From: a phage
Sequence record: NC_042307.1
Length of the DNA: 64,000 nucleotides
Direction: 5' to 3' (one strand)
Part shown: positions 1,784-24,831 of the stretch, one piece after another
Numbering within the stretch: position 1 is the first letter of the stretch
Layout of the letters: each line of letters begins with the position of its first letter
Translations under genes and position numbers: made by a program
The notes under the pieces: generated by a model
The model's input: the letters and a program-made list of their open reading frames with translations, nothing else
Database searches by the model: none
Told to the model about the DNA's origin: nothing

Positions 1784-2316
1784 TAATAAGTAACCAATTC
1801 CTGTACAAATCGCAGGCTGTTATCACTGTTTGCGCCAACTGCATAGACTAATCGAGTGGATTCATAGTTATAATCCAGTATCATACTATCTAGGTGTATA
1901 TCTGCCTCTAGCTTCTGTTCACTAAAGATTGTAGATACAAAAGCACTTTCAATATGCCCATGTTGATACATTTCTAGAAGAAGATTAGCTCCACCTAGAA
2001 CTACTGTTTGCTGATCTTTTAGAAAAGTAGGTAATGTATCACCTATCATTGATATGGGAGTGTAAATATCATGTGTAATATCGTCTGGCAGTGGACGATC
2101 AGCACGAATAAATAGGTCAGAAGCTCCAATCATACGTTCCCTAACGGCATATGGAAGAGCTAAATAAGTACCTGCCCCAATAATAATATTATCAGGATTT
2201 AGTACATCTAATTGTGAATAAAAAGCATCTAGTTCTTCTTTAAAAGAACCCCAGGGGAGCTTACCTCGGAGGCCGAACTCCCCATTCGGCCCAACTGCAT
2301 ACATTGCTGTAATCAT
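1783..2316 (-). CDS. dihydrofolate reductase
   Basis: 177 aa; position between thyA and nrdB; start/stop overlaps (ATGA) with both neighbours. Confidence 0.75.
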   Translation of the reverse strand: MITAMYAVGPNGEFGLRGKLPWGSFKEELDAFYSQLDVLNPDNIIIGAGTYLALPYAVRERMIGASDLFIRADRPLPDDITHDIYTPISMIGDTLPTFLKDQQTVVLGGANLLLEMYQHGHIESAFVSTIFSEQKLEADIHLDSMILDYNYESTRLVYAVGANSDNSLRFVQELVTY

Positions 2317-3459
2317 AGGAAGTCTCCAAATTCATTACCCAAATCTTTCAAGGTATCAGTAGAGGTCTCAGTTACCTGACCTACACGGTAGGCTGCACCA
2401 ATCTGGATTTCTTGTGGGGCAGGCTGTAGAGAAGTAGTATCCAACCAGTTCATGATCCACGGAATAGGGTTTTTAGTGATTACTGGTAAGTGACTAGGCC
2501 ATTCTACACCAATGTGCATAAATGCGTTACGCCCCACAAAGTACAAGTATTCTTCTAGAAGTTCTGCATTCAAACCAATCAGACTACGACCTTTGAAGAT
2601 GAAATGACCCCATTCAATTTCAGTTTTAAGAGTTTTCAGGAGTTGTGCTGGTGCTTTAGCCACTGCTTCATCTACCAGATCTTTGTCAAACTGCTGGAAC
2701 ATAATCTGGATGATTGTTTTAGACATCTGAGTATGTAGGGCTTCATCTTTAGCAATCAATTGCAGATTTTTAGCAATACCTTGCAGAATATCGTTCTCTG
2801 CTAACGCAAAGGTACATGCAAAGGATGCGTAGAACTGCATTGCTTCCAGACCGTAGATTGCAAAATAAGCATCTAACAGTTTAGCCTGAGTTTCACGCTT
2901 AACCTCAGGGAACTCAGTTTCTGGATATGTATTGTCACCACGATGATCACGTACTGCGATGAAATACTGACCTAACTGGTACAGTTCATCGAACAGCTCA
3001 ACAGAATCAGCGATACGTGCGAATGCTTCTTGGTTTTTGGTTACAGAATCAATAAATTCTGCCGGATCAGTCAGCACATTACGAATAATATTACTATAAG
3101 CACGACTATGCAGGTCTTCAAAGTAGCTCCACTGCTTGAGCATACCTTCTAGTTCTGGACGACTTACAAGCGGCATAATAGCTGCTTCAGGCGCTCGACT
3201 GATAAAGGAATCAGTTTGGGTCTGCCATGCTAAGTTCAGGAGTGTGATTTCCTGAATTTCACGTGGGAGATTGGGCCATTGTTTCTTATCTGCTTCCAGA
3301 CTGATTTCAGTTTCAGTCCAAAATTGAGAGCGTTGCAGAAGTGCCAGACGTTCTAGTTCTGGATGTGCTACACGTACATAATCTGCGATACCTAGAGAAT
3401 CGCCCCAGGAAAAGATCAGCGTTAGTATGATCCCAATTCAGGTTTAGTAAAGTAGTCAT
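2313..3459 (-). CDS. nrdB: ribonucleotide reductase small subunit NrdB; reading frame interrupted near the 5' end (see findings)
   Basis: frame 0 is open 3437..2313 and aligns with class Ia NrdB (FSWGDSLGIADY.., SQFW.., RAPEAAIMPLVSRPELE.., HSRAYSNIIRN); only plausible ATG (3459..3457) is in another frame. Confidence 0.85.
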
Positions 3460-4082: not shown

Positions 4083-6410
4083 TTATAAGGTACAGCCACC
4101 TGAAGAACATCCTGTAGTTTCTCCAGCTCCTCCACCATTCGCAGTGTTAAAGTTAGCATAATACCAGGTTTTTATACCATACTTAACCGCAGTCATAAAG
4201 TCACGAACTACTACTGGGCCAGGGATGATTTCATTCTCGAATTTAGAGTAATCATAATACATCTGGAAACTTGATGACTGACTCAAGAATTTTTGGTAAA
4301 CGGCGTTCCATTTGATCCACTCAGTGCGATCAATATCATAAGCTAGTTTATAGCTCATTAACGTTTCCCAGTCGGTTGCACCTGGAGCAATTGCAATTAC
4401 TTTATTTACTGCACTACCTTTGATAGATACAATCTTACGAGGTGGTTCGATAGAGTTAGTAACACCTAACAGAACAGAAGAACTTTCTCCCGGCATCTGA
4501 GCAGTCAGAACAGAGTTACGCATACCATATTTCAGAATATCTGCACGCAGAGACTCCCAATCCATTTCTAGACCTACGGATACCAGTTCATCAACAGTTT
4601 TCTTGTACGTGTCGATTACCAGAGTTCCTTTAGATGGTTTAGTACGATCGAACCATTCACATGCACCTTGCTCTTTGGCTAGACGTACAGAGGCTTTATG
4701 CAGGAAGTAGGACAATTTTTCAGCTTCACGATGAATCCAGTTACGAGCCTCAATACCTTCATAAGCCAGACCTTCTGCTGCCATTGCACCTGCTGCGTTC
4801 ATCAGACCAATACCAACGTTACGACGTTTCTTAGCCGTATATTCCATAGTTGGGAACGGGTAATCCTGAATTTCAATGATGGTATCAACAAATTTCAGAA
4901 GAATATAGCAAGTCTTTTCCCACTCAGCCAGAGATTCCATGCGTCCTAATACAACACCACCTAAGTTACACAGAGATACTTCCCCAATATCCTCCGGCTT
5001 CATTTGATCGAGTTGTTCTTTTGTTTTATACAGTTCCGTGATATGATGGAACGGGCGTGTAGGCTGAGTAATTTCAACACAAAGGTTGGTCATACGAATC
5101 GGGTCAAGGAAGTTACCATGACGGTTAGATTCACCAATGTGATGAGCATACATACGCCCTGTTTCCATACGGATACGTAACCAAGTATCTAGGATTTCTT
5201 TTGCAGAGATTCTAGGAGCTGCTGGAATTGTTTTTCCTTCGTGGTCGGTCTTTGTAAGAGATGCCACACGTTTCTCCGCTGCCACGTAGATTTCTTCAAA
5301 CTTAGCCTCATCTTCACCATAAAACGCTTCATGAACTTCTGGTGCGTAGAAGTAGGACATTAGCGTAATATCTTCGTTTTTCAGGTAACGTTTTAACAGA
5401 AGGTTGTTAAAGCTCAGAGAATAATCCATCTTATCGATTTTATTCTCGTCTGTAGCACGTTGCTGCTTAACCTGCATCAACTGAATGATTTCAGGATCGA
5501 AGTATGGATAAGACACAGTAGCAGAACCGCCACGGGTTTGCTGAGTGTTAGCTTTTACTGAACGGTCAATGTGTCGATAATATGGCAGTTTTCCGGAATG
5601 CGGGAATGCCCCATTTCGCACCGGATCAGCAATTGATCGGCTTTCAAGATGATACCCGATTCCCGCTCTGGCTGCGACCATTTTGAAGACGATGTGCTCG
5701 GCTGTGTCGATTGAATCCAACGTGTCAGTGGAATCCACGAGGCAGCAACTAGCAAATCCACGGTCACTAGAACGCAAACCAACCAGTGGCGGCGTAGGAA
5801 CGTTGATTTTGTGGAGCGACATTGCATTGTAGAGATCGATTGCATCTAGAATTGTCCAGTTGGGTTGAGATAACATCGCCATTGCCATGCCCATATAGGC
5901 AAATTGCGGGGTTTCGTAAATTTCACCAGTGGCTATATTACGACGGGAATATTTATCAAAGAACTGTTTCAGTCCACCACTAGTAAAAAGACGGTCACGA
6001 TCGTGGTCTATAACCTGATTCAGAGCTTCAAATTGCTCATCGGTAATCCATGCACTCATGTCTTCCCATGCACCTACACTAACCATATGATCGTGGAAGA
6101 AGCGTAGAGAAGGTGGTTCGAAGGAATCATAAAGGCGTTTACGCATCTGCGCAAGACGTAATTCCTTTGCTGGCACGTCGTATGCTGGATTATCTTTAAT
6201 AAGACTTTCGGCAGCTTTAATTAACGCATCCATCAGAGTATCGGAATCTACAACCCCTTTAGGCAGAGTTTTTTGAGCAGCCATAGTAATGGCAGACCAA
6301 CTTACATCAACTGTTTTGCAACCATACTCTGCCCAACCATTGAGTTTTTCAGGAGCAAAGTCTTCTACAGTACCGTCACGTTTAATTACTTTTTCAATGC
6401 GATGGCTCAT
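4083..6410 (-). CDS. nrdA: ribonucleotide reductase large subunit NrdA
   Basis: ATP-cone start MSHRIEKVIKRDG aligns with E. coli NrdA; AAGGA upstream of ATG 6410; an in-frame upstream ATG at 6515 with AGGAGG is an alternative start. Confidence 0.9.
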   Translation of the reverse strand: MSHRIEKVIKRDGTVEDFAPEKLNGWAEYGCKTVDVSWSAITMAAQKTLPKGVVDSDTLMDALIKAAESLIKDNPAYDVPAKELRLAQMRKRLYDSFEPPSLRFFHDHMVSVGAWEDMSAWITDEQFEALNQVIDHDRDRLFTSGGLKQFFDKYSRRNIATGEIYETPQFAYMGMAMAMLSQPNWTILDAIDLYNAMSLHKINVPTPPLVGLRSSDRGFASCCLVDSTDTLDSIDTAEHIVFKMVAARAGIGYHLESRSIADPVRNGAFPHSGKLPYYRHIDRSVKANTQQTRGGSATVSYPYFDPEIIQLMQVKQQRATDENKIDKMDYSLSFNNLLLKRYLKNEDITLMSYFYAPEVHEAFYGEDEAKFEEIYVAAEKRVASLTKTDHEGKTIPAAPRISAKEILDTWLRIRMETGRMYAHHIGESNRHGNFLDPIRMTNLCVEITQPTRPFHHITELYKTKEQLDQMKPEDIGEVSLCNLGGVVLGRMESLAEWEKTCYILLKFVDTIIEIQDYPFPTMEYTAKKRRNVGIGLMNAAGAMAAEGLAYEGIEARNWIHREAEKLSYFLHKASVRLAKEQGACEWFDRTKPSKGTLVIDTYKKTVDELVSVGLEMDWESLRADILKYGMRNSVLTAQMPGESSSVLLGVTNSIEPPRKIVSIKGSAVNKVIAIAPGATDWETLMSYKLAYDIDRTEWIKWNAVYQKFLSQSSSFQMYYDYSKFENEIIPGPVVVRDFMTAVKYGIKTWYYANFNTANGGGAGETTGCSSGGCTL

Positions 6411-6554
6411 TTGGTTTTCCTTTTTATAGTTATCAGGATTTAGGAAATAGTTTACTTTATTCTCAGTCATTTGGCAAATAAAATTTTCTGATAGAAAAGG
6501 CCCGAGTATTTTCATACCCAGGCCTCCTGTGTTGTCAGTCTAGTTTTTGGCCAC

Positions 6555-7800: not shown

Positions 7801-8670
7801 GTGGAATGCCCGAAAAAATTAACTCAAGAAGAAGTAGATAAATGCCTAGCCGAGCGTGGTTTTACTATGGTGGATAAGCCATATCAAAATTCTAGGTATA
7901 GGCATACGTATCAGTGTGAATACGGTCACCAATGGACAGCTAAATTTGACGCTATTAGGAATGGAAAGACCAATTGTCCTACTTGCTCTATTAGTAGCCG
8001 TAAACTAGATATTGATAAAATTAATACTATATTACAGGACAGAGGTATTACATTGTTGAACGGCTATAAAAATAGTGCCGATATAAATACTAAATTTAGG
8101 TGTGTTTGTGGTCATGAGTGGGCTACTACACTTAATAGTATAATTAATAGAGGTAGTGGCTGCCCATCTTGTGCTGCTAATAAACAGAAACTTAGTGTTA
8201 ATACTATAAATGATCGTCTTGCTGCCAGAAATATCAGAATAGTGGGTGAGTATAGTAATGCGAATACTAAGACCGCCTTTCTTTGTGGTGCAGGGCATAG
8301 GTGGGAAGCTACTCCAGGGTCTGTATTAAGGGGGAACGGTTGTCCTTACTGTAGTTATAGAGATTTAGAAAGTACTAGGATATATGTTATGTATAGCCCC
8401 TCACATGGGGTTAAAATAGGTAGGTCTAACAATCCAGAGCGTAGACTTCTACATATTAGATCTAGTAGCCACCTTATTGATTTGGAAATAATTAAAGTAT
8501 TTGAAATTGGGGAATATAGTAGTGCAGTTCGAATAGAAAAATTAGCCCATAACTACTTTAAAGAGCAGAATTGCCAGTACAAAGATTTTGACGGCGCTAC
8601 GGAATTCTTCAATATTGAACCAAAAGTAGCTATAAAGTTTATCGAGGAAATAATCAATGACAGAGAATGA
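7801..8670 (+). CDS. putative homing endonuclease: three tandem zinc-ribbon repeats plus C-terminal GIY-YIG-like/T5orf172-like domain
   Basis: repeats ..GEYSNANTKTAFLCGAGHRWEATPGSVLRGNGCPYCS; C-terminal IYVMYSPSHGVKIGRSNNPERRL; GTG start; paralogous to 60056..60730. Confidence 0.5.
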   Translation: MECPKKLTQEEVDKCLAERGFTMVDKPYQNSRYRHTYQCEYGHQWTAKFDAIRNGKTNCPTCSISSRKLDIDKINTILQDRGITLLNGYKNSADINTKFRCVCGHEWATTLNSIINRGSGCPSCAANKQKLSVNTINDRLAARNIRIVGEYSNANTKTAFLCGAGHRWEATPGSVLRGNGCPYCSYRDLESTRIYVMYSPSHGVKIGRSNNPERRLLHIRSSSHLIDLEIIKVFEIGEYSSAVRIEKLAHNYFKEQNCQYKDFDGATEFFNIEPKVAIKFIEEIINDRE

Positions 8671-19371: not shown

Positions 19372-19782
19372 ATGACTACTCCAACTCAGTGGACTGATGA
19401 ACTGTTCGAAAAAATGTCTTCCGAATACGTTGCTCGTATGGAGCAATTCCCAGAGGATGAACGTCCGGGTGTTAGCATGGAAATTGTTAGCGAAATTGCC
19501 CAGGAAAATGGTGTAACTCCGAACGGTTTTCGTATGAAGCTGACTAAAGCAGGTTTGTATATTAAGAAAGCTGCTGGTTCTACTTCTAAATCTAGCGCAT
19601 CTACTGGAGAAAAAGCTTCCGGTGGTTCTCGTACCTCCAAAGCTCAAGCCCATGCCGACCTTCGCGCAGCATTCTCTGACGCTGGCTTAGCACCAGATTT
19701 TATGGATGATGCAATTATCGACAAACTGACTGGTAAAGCGGCCGCTCATCTGGCAGAAGCAATTCGAGCTATCACTAAGTAA
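19372..19782 (+). CDS. hypothetical early protein (136 aa), host-optimal codon usage
   Basis: TAAGGAAA upstream; CTG/CGT/GGT codon preference. Confidence 0.55.
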   Translation: MTTPTQWTDELFEKMSSEYVARMEQFPEDERPGVSMEIVSEIAQENGVTPNGFRMKLTKAGLYIKKAAGSTSKSSASTGEKASGGSRTSKAQAHADLRAAFSDAGLAPDFMDDAIIDKLTGKAAAHLAEAIRAITK

Positions 19783-19818
19783 TTTTAGATAAATCCACCA
19801 ACAAAAGGAACTACAGTT

Positions 19819-20116
19819 ATGACCAAAGCTGAAATTATCGCACAATGTGAAAAATTTGGTGAGTTTTATCTTCATTACGAGAAACTTCGTCAGAAAGGAA
19901 CCACGTACCTTCAGGGTACGATGGAATTTGATCCAGCTCAGGATAAATACCTGGCTGAGCGTATTAAACAGTGAACGTATTCGTAAAGCGAAAGATGATG
20001 AAATCCTTGTCTTCTCTCGTACTAATGATAGCTTCCGTTTTATTCCTGTCGAGAAAGTTCGTCGTGTGACTAGCCTCCAATCAGAGTTAGATCGTGCTTC
20101 TCCAGTAGGCCGATAA
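19819..20116 (+). CDS. hypothetical protein encoded in two frames: ORF-A 19819..19974 ends at TGA, coding signal continues in +1 frame to 20116 (see findings)
   Basis: AAAAGGAA upstream of ATG 19819; CGT-rich coding frame downstream of the TGA. Confidence 0.45.
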
Positions 20117-20126
20117 GAAAACAATT

Positions 20127-20150
20127 AGCCCCTATATGGGGCTTTTTGTG
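20127..20150 (+). terminator. rho-independent terminator
   Basis: AGCCCC-TATAT-GGGGCT then TTTTT. Confidence 0.7.
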
Positions 20151-20166
20151 TATTTGGGATGTGTAA

Positions 20167-20475
20167 ATGAGCGAACAGGTAAATCAAAACTATGAAGGAC
20201 ACGTTGATGACCAGTCCATCATACTTTGGGAGAAGGAGGGGGAACAAGTAAGATTAACAGTATCTGAATTTCGTGGGAATCTATACATGGGTATTCGTTA
20301 CTGGCTTCTTGATATTAATGATGAATGGTTTCCAACGAAATCTGGCTTCTCTTTTCCTTACACCCTAGAAACAACATCACAGCTTTTCTATGCGTTTACA
20401 CAGATTCTTAGCGAATCTGAGGTTTTACATGAAGTACAGAAACGAGCTGAAGAACTAAAAGCCAAGAATGCCTAG
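20167..20475 (+). CDS. hypothetical protein (102 aa)
   Basis: ORF track. Confidence 0.45.
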   Translation: MSEQVNQNYEGHVDDQSIILWEKEGEQVRLTVSEFRGNLYMGIRYWLLDINDEWFPTKSGFSFPYTLETTSQLFYAFTQILSESEVLHEVQKRAEELKAKNA

Positions 20476-21736: not shown

Positions 21737-22516
21737 ATGAAAATCGAAATTCCAACACAATGTCCCTCTTGTGGTTCTAAGCTAGATCTTGTCAACGGAC
21801 AATTATTCTGTCGTAATAAGTCCAACTGTCCAGCGCAATCAAGTAAGTTAATTGAGAACTTCTGTACAAAAATGAAGTTAAAGGGCTTTGGCCCAAAAAC
21901 TATTGAGAAGCTGGAGCTGACGAAGATTTCAGAACTATTTTACCTAACCGAAGAAGATTTGGTTAGAGCCGTGGGTAGCAAGGTTGCCGCTAAGTTAATT
22001 AGCGAATTAAATACTAAAGTTCGCGGAGACATTGACTTTGGTTCAGTTCTCGGTTCTTTAGGAATCACTCTAATTGGAGAGGTTGCAGCAAAGAAATTAT
22101 CCCAAAATTGCACTAGCTTCCATGATGTGAAGGCTGACGGCAAGGCTGGAGAAAATTACAAAGCCTGGCTAAATTCCCCACAAGGCAAGGATGTTATTGA
22201 ACTACCGTGGAAATTTTCAACTGGTATTAAGGGCACTAAAGCTGACGTCATCATTACAGATGAATTAGTTGCCCAGCCAAATGGAATCGCGGTATGTATT
22301 ACCGGATCTTTGCAAGATTTTGCAAATAGAACGGATGCAACAAACTATTTAGAAAGTCTAGGGTATACGGTTAAGAAATCCGTTACCAAAGACGTCAAAT
22401 ACCTAATCTGTGAGGATGAATCGAAGCGTTCCTCCTCATCTTATAAGAAAGCCGAAACGAATGGGATAGAAATCCTGTCGATTAAAGAACTATTGGAGAA
22501 AAATAATAATGTCTAA
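21737..22516 (+). CDS. NAD-dependent DNA ligase, C-terminal polypeptide (zinc finger, HhH, BRCT)
   Basis: CPSCGSKLDLVNGQLFCRNKSNCPAQ zinc finger; ATG 21737 (track start is TTG 21734). Confidence 0.85.
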   Translation: MKIEIPTQCPSCGSKLDLVNGQLFCRNKSNCPAQSSKLIENFCTKMKLKGFGPKTIEKLELTKISELFYLTEEDLVRAVGSKVAAKLISELNTKVRGDIDFGSVLGSLGITLIGEVAAKKLSQNCTSFHDVKADGKAGENYKAWLNSPQGKDVIELPWKFSTGIKGTKADVIITDELVAQPNGIAVCITGSLQDFANRTDATNYLESLGYTVKKSVTKDVKYLICEDESKRSSSSYKKAETNGIEILSIKELLEKNNNV

Positions 22517-23276
22517 ACTGAACTGGAACGTAGAAGGTGTAACCGAGTCTCTGAAAGCAAAAGCCACTGCTCTGGGTGTTGCTGTAATCTCTCAAGAACA
22601 AGTAGCTGCTATCGCTGCTGAACTGGCTGCTGAAACTGGCAAAGATGTTACTGCTCGCTCTGTTGGCTCTAAGCTGCGTAAAGAAGGTTTTGAAGTACAA
22701 AAAGCTAACGAAGTACAGAAATCCCCGTGGACTCCTGAGCAGGAAGCTGAACTGGTTGATTTCCTGAACGCTCATGCTGGTCAGTATACCTATGCTGAAA
22801 TCGCTGCTGCTGTAGCTGGTGGTCAGTTCGGTGCTAAACAGGTACAGGGTAAGATCCTGAGTCTGGAAATGACCGCTTCTGTTAAACCAACTGAAAAAGC
22901 TGCTGCTGTTCGTTCCTTCACTCCGGATGAAGAAACTGATTTTGTTAATCAGGTTGTTGCTGGAGCTACTATTGAAGCTATCGCTGCTCACTTCGGTCGC
23001 AATATTAAGCAGATCCGTGGTAAAGCTCTGAGCCTGCTTCGTGAAGGTCGTATCGCCGCTATGCCGGTACAGGAAACTTCAAGTGCTAAAACTCGTGAAG
23101 ATCTGTTAGAAGGTCTGGATCTGGCTAACATGACTGTTGCTGAGATCGCTGAGAAAACTGGTAAGTCTGAGCGCGGTGTTAAATCTATGCTGTCTCGTCG
23201 TGGTCTGGTTGCTAAGGACTATGATGGTGCCGCTAAGCGTGCTAAACTGGATGCAAAAGCTGCGGCTGCTGAATAA
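22509..23276 (+). CDS. hypothetical abundant protein with four internal HTH-like repeats, possibly a DNA-binding protein
   Basis: repeats EIAAAVAGGQFGAKQVQGKILSLE / AIAAHFGRNIKQIRGKALSLLREG / EIAEKTGKSERGVKSMLSRRGL; strongly host-optimal codons. Confidence 0.45.
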   Translation: MSKLNWNVEGVTESLKAKATALGVAVISQEQVAAIAAELAAETGKDVTARSVGSKLRKEGFEVQKANEVQKSPWTPEQEAELVDFLNAHAGQYTYAEIAAAVAGGQFGAKQVQGKILSLEMTASVKPTEKAAAVRSFTPDEETDFVNQVVAGATIEAIAAHFGRNIKQIRGKALSLLREGRIAAMPVQETSSAKTREDLLEGLDLANMTVAEIAEKTGKSERGVKSMLSRRGLVAKDYDGAAKRAKLDAKAAAAE

Positions 23277-23358: not shown

Positions 23359-24831
23359 ATGACCTTGTTTAACGTGCAAGCTGTAGTGTTGAAGATGCTT
23401 CTAGCTTCCGAACAGAAGCAAATAGCATTGGAAACATTCTCAAAACTGCATAAAGATCATTTTAATGACGCTTTCTCCTCAATTTACCAAGCCGTCCAGA
23501 ATTATTATAAAAAATATAACACAATGCCGTCCATTGACGCACTGATGCTTGAGGCTAATAGGAACGCCCGCCTTTCTCAAGCTCTAGTCGTTTTAGCTAA
23601 CACTCAAATTCCAGAAGTTAGCATGGAACAGGCACTTGAAGTCCTAGAGGCCGAGTATACGCAGGATTTATTCCTGAAGCTTCTAGAAACAGACGTGCTT
23701 CAAGATTTAACAATGCTGGATCAGGGAGAAATTCTTAACCGAGTTGCCTCCCTTCACTTAAAATTAGAAGAGAAAGTAACGAATACTGGAAAAGTATTCA
23801 ACGCAGATAACATGCGTATTTTCCAGAGAGAAGAAGATACCAAACTGAACTTAATCGCTCTTGGTATTTGTAATGAGTTCGACGCTCAAATTGGTTTAGC
23901 TCGCACAGAAACGTTACTGCTTGGTGGTTGGCGTGGTACTGGTAAATCCATTATCTGTTCAAACATACAGGTTCAGCAATATTTGAATGGAGATATTGCT
24001 CCATACTTCTCAATTGAGATGAAAGAACATGAAGTATTTAGACGTAATCTAGCCATGTTAGCTGGTGTATCAGCACTAGCAATGCGTAATAATACTCTAG
24101 AAGGTGCAGCTCTGTTGAGATTAGCCAGAACTAGAGCTAGAATGTTTAACGGTGGTGAAGAGCTTTTCGATAACTTCGTTAAACAATACACAATGGCTAA
24201 GATGAGTGATTTCTACGATATGGAAAGTAAGCTAATAGAAGGATATGAGCTACATACTCCTATGATTATTGTTTATGATCCTGAGCTGTCTATTACAACA
24301 GTTGACGTAGAATTAAATAAATTAGTTGCTAGATATGGGGATAAAGTTACAGTAGCTTTACTTGACTATATTAACCAAACCCGACTTCCAGATTCTAAAA
24401 CCATTGATATGTATGACTGGAAAGAACAGATGGTTGTTAGCTCGTCTTTCAAATCCCTCTGCCAGAAACATAACGTGGCTGGTGTAGCTCCTTACCAGAT
24501 TGATCAAGATGGTAGAACACGTATGTCAAAAGGGATTCTTGATTCCGCAGACATGGCTGCTAATCTTAATGCTGCAAAAGCTGATAATGGTCAAGGTGCT
24601 ATTATGTTTGACTTCGTTAAGACCCGTTCTTCTGATAGCGTGAAGTTTATGCCTAAAATGAACTGGGAAACCCTGCGGATGGATAACACTACCAACCTAG
24701 CAATGGAAGATATATCTCAAATGGAAGCTGAGTTCGTTATCCCTATTGAGAAGGATAAGCCAGCTCAATCTAAACGTGCTAAGAAAGACAAAGCTGAAAA
24801 TTCAACAGGTGAACAGGCCAGCGATATATGA
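23359..24831 (+). CDS. replicative DNA helicase (DnaB-like)
   Basis: Walker A GGWRGTGKS, DnaB-like LDYINQ motif; AAAGGAGA upstream of ATG 23359. Confidence 0.6.
   Translation: MTLFNVQAVVLKMLLASEQKQIALETFSKLHKDHFNDAFSSIYQAVQNYYKKYNTMPSIDALMLEANRNARLSQALVVLANTQIPEVSMEQALEVLEAEYTQDLFLKLLETDVLQDLTMLDQGEILNRVASLHLKLEEKVTNTGKVFNADNMRIFQREEDTKLNLIALGICNEFDAQIGLARTETLLLGGWRGTGKSIICSNIQVQQYLNGDIAPYFSIEMKEHEVFRRNLAMLAGVSALAMRNNTLEGAALLRLARTRARMFNGGEELFDNFVKQYTMAKMSDFYDMESKLIEGYELHTPMIIVYDPELSITTVDVELNKLVARYGDKVTVALLDYINQTRLPDSKTIDMYDWKEQMVVSSSFKSLCQKHNVAGVAPYQIDQDGRTRMSKGILDSADMAANLNAAKADNGQGAIMFDFVKTRSSDSVKFMPKMNWETLRMDNTTNLAMEDISQMEAEFVIPIEKDKPAQSKRAKKDKAENSTGEQASDI

Follow-up and report, generated by a model that had tools for sequence, protein, structure and literature searches.

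A single extra adenine in the deposited sequence of phage H8 appears to split a conserved T5-family early gene

An in-frame UGA followed by continuation of the coding sequence in the +1 frame is the hallmark of prfB, the gene for release factor 2, in which the stop codon stands in the sequence CUU-UGA-C and is preceded by a Shine-Dalgarno (SD) sequence. Much the same appearance is found in older phage deposits that contain either an error in the sequence or a pseudogene specific to the strain. In these, one private indel lies in an otherwise perfectly conserved open reading frame (ORF), the two resulting pieces are annotated as 'hypothetical proteins', and other private one-base indels are present as well. 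Here we analyze a pair of coding pieces joined by a UGA codon in a 64,000-nt stretch of NC_042307.1 (the window), which covers the region of early replication genes in a Tequintavirus (T5-like) phage. An earlier note on this DNA, made from the letters alone, had left three readings side by side: a programmed +1 frameshift, a true frameshift mutation, or a base-call error.

The closest described gene is T5.114 of Escherichia phage T5 (YP_006942.1), which has orthologs in Tequintavirus and Epseptimavirus and belongs to phrog_3696, annotated in PHROGs as a family of unknown function. T5.114 occupies the same place as the window locus, between D3 (T5.113) and the homologs of T5.115 and ligA, and its orthologs share the SD, the start, the stop, and the terminator with the window locus. 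In the part of the literature that was accessible, T5.114 is named once, within a description of an unrelated phage. Unlike the other members of the family, none of which is split, the ORF in the window stops after 51 codons as the result of an extra A.

The first piece starts at ATG 19819 and is read for 51 codons to a premature TGA at 19972-19974 (19819..19974, + strand; annotated as gp093 of phage H8), giving the product MTKAEIIAQCEKFGEFYLHYEKLRQKGTTYLQGTMEFDPAQDKYLAERIKQ (MTKAEII...AERIKQ). An AAGGA SD at 19806..19810 (+ strand), 8 nt 5' of the ATG and with a predicted anti-SD duplex of -5.6 kcal/mol, is kept in all aligned relatives in the DNA alignment. The second piece lies in the +1 frame; starting at 19973, it comprises 47 codons (ERIRKAKDDEILVFSRTNDSFRFIPVEKVRRVTSLQSELDRASPVGR) and ends with TAA 20114-20116 (19973..20116, + strand). 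An intrinsic terminator follows at 20127..20152 (+ strand), comprising the hairpin AGCCCC-TATAT-GGGGCT (20127-20143) and then the T-run within TTTTTGTGT; the equivalent element 3' of the gene is annotated as a terminator in both T5 and AKFV33. Thus, the good SD, the 51-codon reading, and the terminator are all present as the earlier note had described them.

Synteny is fixed by the two neighbours, a D3 (T5.113) homolog upstream (19372..19782, + strand) and a homolog of T5.115, annotated as an ssDNA-binding transcriptional regulator, downstream (20167..20475, + strand). In the wider region, homologs of D2, T5.112, and D3 lie upstream of the locus, and those of T5.115, ligA, and ligB lie downstream. 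The closest record in the annotated phage collection was Shigella phage SHSML-45, at 96.8%. In the RefSeq entry for SHSML-45, no CDS is listed at 22378-22823, where both T5 and the window (20167-20475) carry the T5.115 homolog; this is probably an annotation gap.

To place the break, we used a DNA alignment of the locus with its relatives. The window reads AAAC-A-GTGAACG, versus AAACGTGAACG in all other aligned loci, and the extra A at position 19970 (+ strand), which turns CGT-GAA into CAG-TGA, is the sole difference that affects the reading frame. The one-base gap at 19970 was seen against each of the reference loci that cover the site (23/23). At the matching position, T5, ESCO40, T5_ev212, NBEco002, AKFV33, and SHSML-45 have one uninterrupted CDS of 297 nt (T5.114 and its orthologs), and every complete ortholog from the fetched loci (21/21) is a single ORF of 98 aa. 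When A19970 is deleted from the window sequence, a 98-aa ORF is obtained that is 100% identical to the commonest T5.114 allele, the form held by 17 of 22 loci and found, as the exact protein, on 642 public contigs. Residues 1-50 of the N-terminal piece are identical in the intact 98-aa orthologs, and the C-terminal piece has 100% identity with residues 52-98.

These results bear on several points that the earlier note had raised. Coding does continue in the +1 frame to 20116, and the two pieces are no chance pair, since a conserved 98-aa protein aligns with both of them in the same order. On the other hand, the note had joined the pieces by skipping the U of the UGA, and the alignment locates the lesion elsewhere: it is the inserted A19970, the ancestral codon is CGT (Arg), and the native junction is ...AERIKRERIRK.... 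The succession of ERIK and ERIR, taken in the note for a local duplication, is a repeat native to the protein of close relatives and no by-product of a shift. The comparison with T5-like orthologs had been set beforehand as the refutation of a shift, and what these relatives carry is an uninterrupted ORF differing by one base.

We then asked how widely the split form is distributed. The only exact match to the 51-aa product was YP_009966059.1 (FGG59_gp093), found on 1 contig, which is that of Escherichia phage H8; the window is accordingly H8 sequence. A protein-level search, covering 5.8 billion sequences, returned 23 clusters, 22 of which contain proteins of 96-111 aa that cover 93-100% of the query, with identities ranging down to 44% (Yersinia phiR2-01, Serratia Slocum, and others); the only cluster outside this size range is the 62-aa gp094 of H8 itself. 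At the DNA level, a junction-centred query of 58 nt matched 411 T5-like phage records, the best at 96.6% and none at 100%, and its span was 57 nt in all 30 matches listed. Megablast with a 34-nt query in which every seed word crosses the insertion gave no match, and the junction 28-mer occurs in no record searched. By exact-pattern scan, the insertion allele was found 0 times in IMG/VR, 0 times in metagenome contigs, and 0 times in GTDB genomes, versus 17 IMG/VR loci for the intact allele, and the exact-product contig index did not contain it beyond the H8 record. A literature search for a paper joining phage H8, frameshift, and T5-like found none; the H8 genome paper, as cited in PMC8594841, is Rabsch et al. 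(2007, J Bacteriol 189:5658).

Judged by these sequence comparisons, H8 is the only known genome in which the T5.114 gene appears split. The deposited window sequence lacks the single ORF of ~96-111 codons that defines the family, and the locus reads as a disrupted or mis-sequenced member of T5.114/phrog_3696: a conserved 98-codon early gene of the T5 family, apparently broken by one extra A that is private to the H8 record.

The family itself behaves as one gene encoding one domain. The phrog_3696 profile aligns to the restored protein over its whole length (positions 1-94 of 94, E = 3e-49). Invariant residues flank the junction, with E15, Y20, T29, L31-Q32-G33-T34, D42, and Y44 upstream and L63, F65-S66-R67, F72-R73, P76, and L86 downstream, so that the C-terminal piece in the window carries the family's invariant LxFSR...FR..P motif. 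Among 17 distinct DNA alleles, the first half has 13 variable codons that are purely synonymous and the second has 10, versus 1 amino-acid-changing variable codon in each half. From the predominance of synonymous codons (13 + 10 vs 1 + 1), we conclude that purifying selection acts on the two halves as a single continuous frame. The AlphaFold2 model derived from the family alignment is confident (mean pLDDT 88, pTM 0.76) and has one small alpha/beta domain, with strands at 15-21 and 28-34 in the first piece and at 61-66, 71-76, and 80-85 in the second. Since the predicted domain draws strands from both pieces, the 51-aa product would represent half a fold.

Searches with the restored protein gave limited indications of function. 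Pfam yielded no family above the cut-off; PDDEXK_5 was at E = 0.063, with 13.7 bits against a cut-off of 26.1. Foldseek against the PDB gave no match at E <= 0.001. The best match was the WYL domain of BrxR (TM 0.53), within a weak likeness to the WYL-type beta-barrel domains of BrxR, PafBC, DriD, and CapW (TM ~0.5, E ~0.02). From the modelled fold it is possible, as a lead only, that the T5.114 protein is an early protein consisting of a small nucleic-acid- or ligand-binding domain. Such a domain would fit with the DNA-binding annotation of the neighbours D3 and T5.115.

The extra A is one of three private +1 insertions in the 64 kb, two of which lie in short C-runs. In nrdB, which encodes the small subunit of the aerobic ribonucleotide reductase, the frame is broken by one extra base at 3402-3406 (window 3394-3459, - strand; CTGGGGCGAT vs CTGGGTGAT in relatives), where a CCCC run stands in place of CCC. 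The 381-aa ORF is thereby cut after 19 codons, past MTTLLNLNWDHTNADLFLG, which leaves an ORF of 287 aa (2313-3176) as the longest; deletion of one base at 3402-3406 restores the 381-aa nrdB. The best of 400 relatives match 70/71 bases over a 70-nt span at this site, and none matches at 100%. The third insertion, an extra C at 7811 (+ strand; ATGCC-C-GAAAAAA vs ATGCCGAAAAAA in relatives), affects the start of an endonuclease ORF (7801-8670) that is GIY-YIG or homing-endonuclease-like according to the annotations of relatives. The conserved ATG (SD -6.4 kcal/mol) is put out of frame with the ORF, the only in-frame start left is GTG 7801 with a poor SD, and the ORF is otherwise 100% identical to that of SHSML-45 over 286 aa. 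Again, 70/71 bases is the best match among relatives, with no match at 100%, and only the H8 record has the insertion. In all three cases, the gene is under strong purifying selection, there is no decay downstream, and the sequence is locally identical to that of relatives.

In a tblastn scan of the window for which every long T5 or SHSML-45 ORF served as a query, frame breaks were detected only at 19970 and 7811, a count to be read with the knowledge that the scan missed nrdB, whose N-terminal piece is 19 aa, and that further breaks near gene ends could escape likewise. Two other differences were observed. At window position 6487, a TTTT run is found versus TTT in SHSML-45, the one relative compared, making this a fourth single-base insertion with respect to the closest relative. 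By the SHSML-45 annotation the run lies upstream of the nrdA start, and the longest nrdA ORF in the window (4083-6515) extends past it. At 23973-23987, the homolog of D6 (DnaB-like helicase) has a 15-nt in-frame insertion relative to T5, which looks like ordinary strain variation.

Could the UGA be bypassed by the ribosome, as in prfB? A programmed +1 shift at CAG-UGA would yield the full-length protein and perhaps the 51-aa product as a second isoform. Such a shift is extremely unlikely, even though the in-frame UGA falls exactly where the +1 frame takes over and the downstream half is perfectly kept, because none of the ~411 relatives or the 22 family clusters has the split, and the ancestral site is an ordinary Arg-Glu (CGT-GAA). 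Nor does the site carry the signals that such a mechanism uses. A P-site tRNA-Gln cannot re-pair from CAG to AGU, where either anticodon gives a mismatch, a G-U pair, and a mismatch (0 Watson-Crick pairs), whereas in the prfB control, CUU to UUU, pairing is maintained at all three positions (G-U, Watson-Crick, G-U). Within the 25 nt that precede the stop, the strongest anti-SD pairing is -3.2 kcal/mol, which equals the background median (a fraction of 0.49 of 2000 25-mers were equal or better), versus -10.7 kcal/mol for a prfB-type control sequence. The base after the UGA is A rather than the C of prfB; in the ranking of termination contexts, it is UGA followed by C that is weak. No stimulatory RNA structure was predicted for 19940-20060 (MFE -19.2 kcal/mol, shuffles averaging -21.4, z = +0.70). 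Transcriptional slippage needs a long run of A or T, and there is no homopolymer of at least 4 bases in 19940-20000. Thus, unlike prfB, the locus has no slippery P-site codon, SD-like stimulator, UGA-C, conservation in orthologs, or autoregulatory logic. Of the three readings in the earlier note, the programmed frameshift therefore falls for lack of signals and conservation, and a mutation or a base-call error stands. Structure-stimulated +1 or -1 frameshifting, of the antizyme type or as in phage structural genes, was rejected on the same z value for downstream structure, and UGA read-through was rejected since the 0 frame closes again after 3 added residues. It is likewise exceedingly improbable that the extra A is real and is accompanied by low-level, unstimulated +1 shifting at CAG-UGA-A, or that the 51-aa fragment has a role of its own; if this were true, a newly arisen recoding site would have been caught at birth. 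The H8 RefSeq annotation implies something else, namely that gp093 (51 aa) and gp094 (62 aa) are two real genes, each translated separately. Automated annotation calls both ORFs, and gp094 (19928..20116, + strand) has a TTG start at 19928, placed mechanically, with a weak SD-like match of -4.0 kcal/mol. The earlier note had seen no plausible start for the second piece. A mechanical start does exist and is used in RefSeq, but in all relatives this TTG lies, together with the bases around it, in the ordinary coding interior of the intact gene. In gp094, residues 1-15 are read out of frame, the fold as predicted requires the strands of both pieces, and the split is absent from every other genome, which together make two genes very unlikely. 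GTG 19847 was also considered as a start for the second half and was discarded, having no SD (+0.4 kcal/mol) and being internal coding sequence in relatives.

There remain an error in the deposited sequence and a real mutation. We infer that the extra A19970 is probably an error in the deposited consensus, because it is private to one record, there is no downstream decay, and two further private insertions are present. Residual consensus errors are expected in older shotgun assemblies, and three insertions in 64 kb fit better with this kind of error than with three fixed knock-outs. The locus resembles the older phage deposits described above, whichever of their two causes applies, in every feature, with nothing that differs. 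If the deposit is in error, the real H8 phage would read AAA-CGT-GAA (AAACGTGAA, with the extra A absent) and would make the normal 98-aa protein, the nrdB site would be CCC, the endonuclease start site would be ATGCCGAAA, and no recoding would be involved. Against an error, A19970 lies in the context C-A-G with no homopolymer and hence is not of the commonest base-call error kind. This less typical context, together with the plain fact that the deposited sequence shows the extra A, leaves it possible, though not probable, that a genuine and very recent frameshift occurred in the sequenced H8 stock and created a new pseudogene, dispensable in laboratory growth. Only the 51-aa N-terminal fragment, half a fold and presumably without function, would then be made. 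T5.114 is one of a group of adjoining small early genes and may be non-essential. Laboratory stocks that are propagated for long periods gather lesions in accessory genes, and since the phage may well be able to do without T5.114 and its nrdB in laboratory culture, real knock-outs could persist. Nevertheless, the allele is private to a single record, whereas the intact, identical protein is on 642 contigs, and the family is under strong purifying selection. A mutation would have to be extremely recent, since there is no amino-acid change 3' of the shift, and two further private frameshifts, one of them in nrdB, would need to have occurred as well within 64 kb.

The locus, then, is not a new biological feature, and the value of the finding lies in quality control. 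With a consensus error as the preferred reading, gp093 and gp094 of H8 would be spurious, and one conserved 98-aa gene belongs in their place; the H8 record apparently has similar one-base problems in nrdB and at the start of the homing-endonuclease-like gene. Sites of this kind will continue to turn up in screens for programmed frameshifting, where aligning the locus with its close relatives is a single step that resolves them. If instead the lesions are real, H8 would be a natural knock-out, and T5.114 and the phage nrdB would be dispensable for plaque growth, a small result but one on which T5 genetics could draw.
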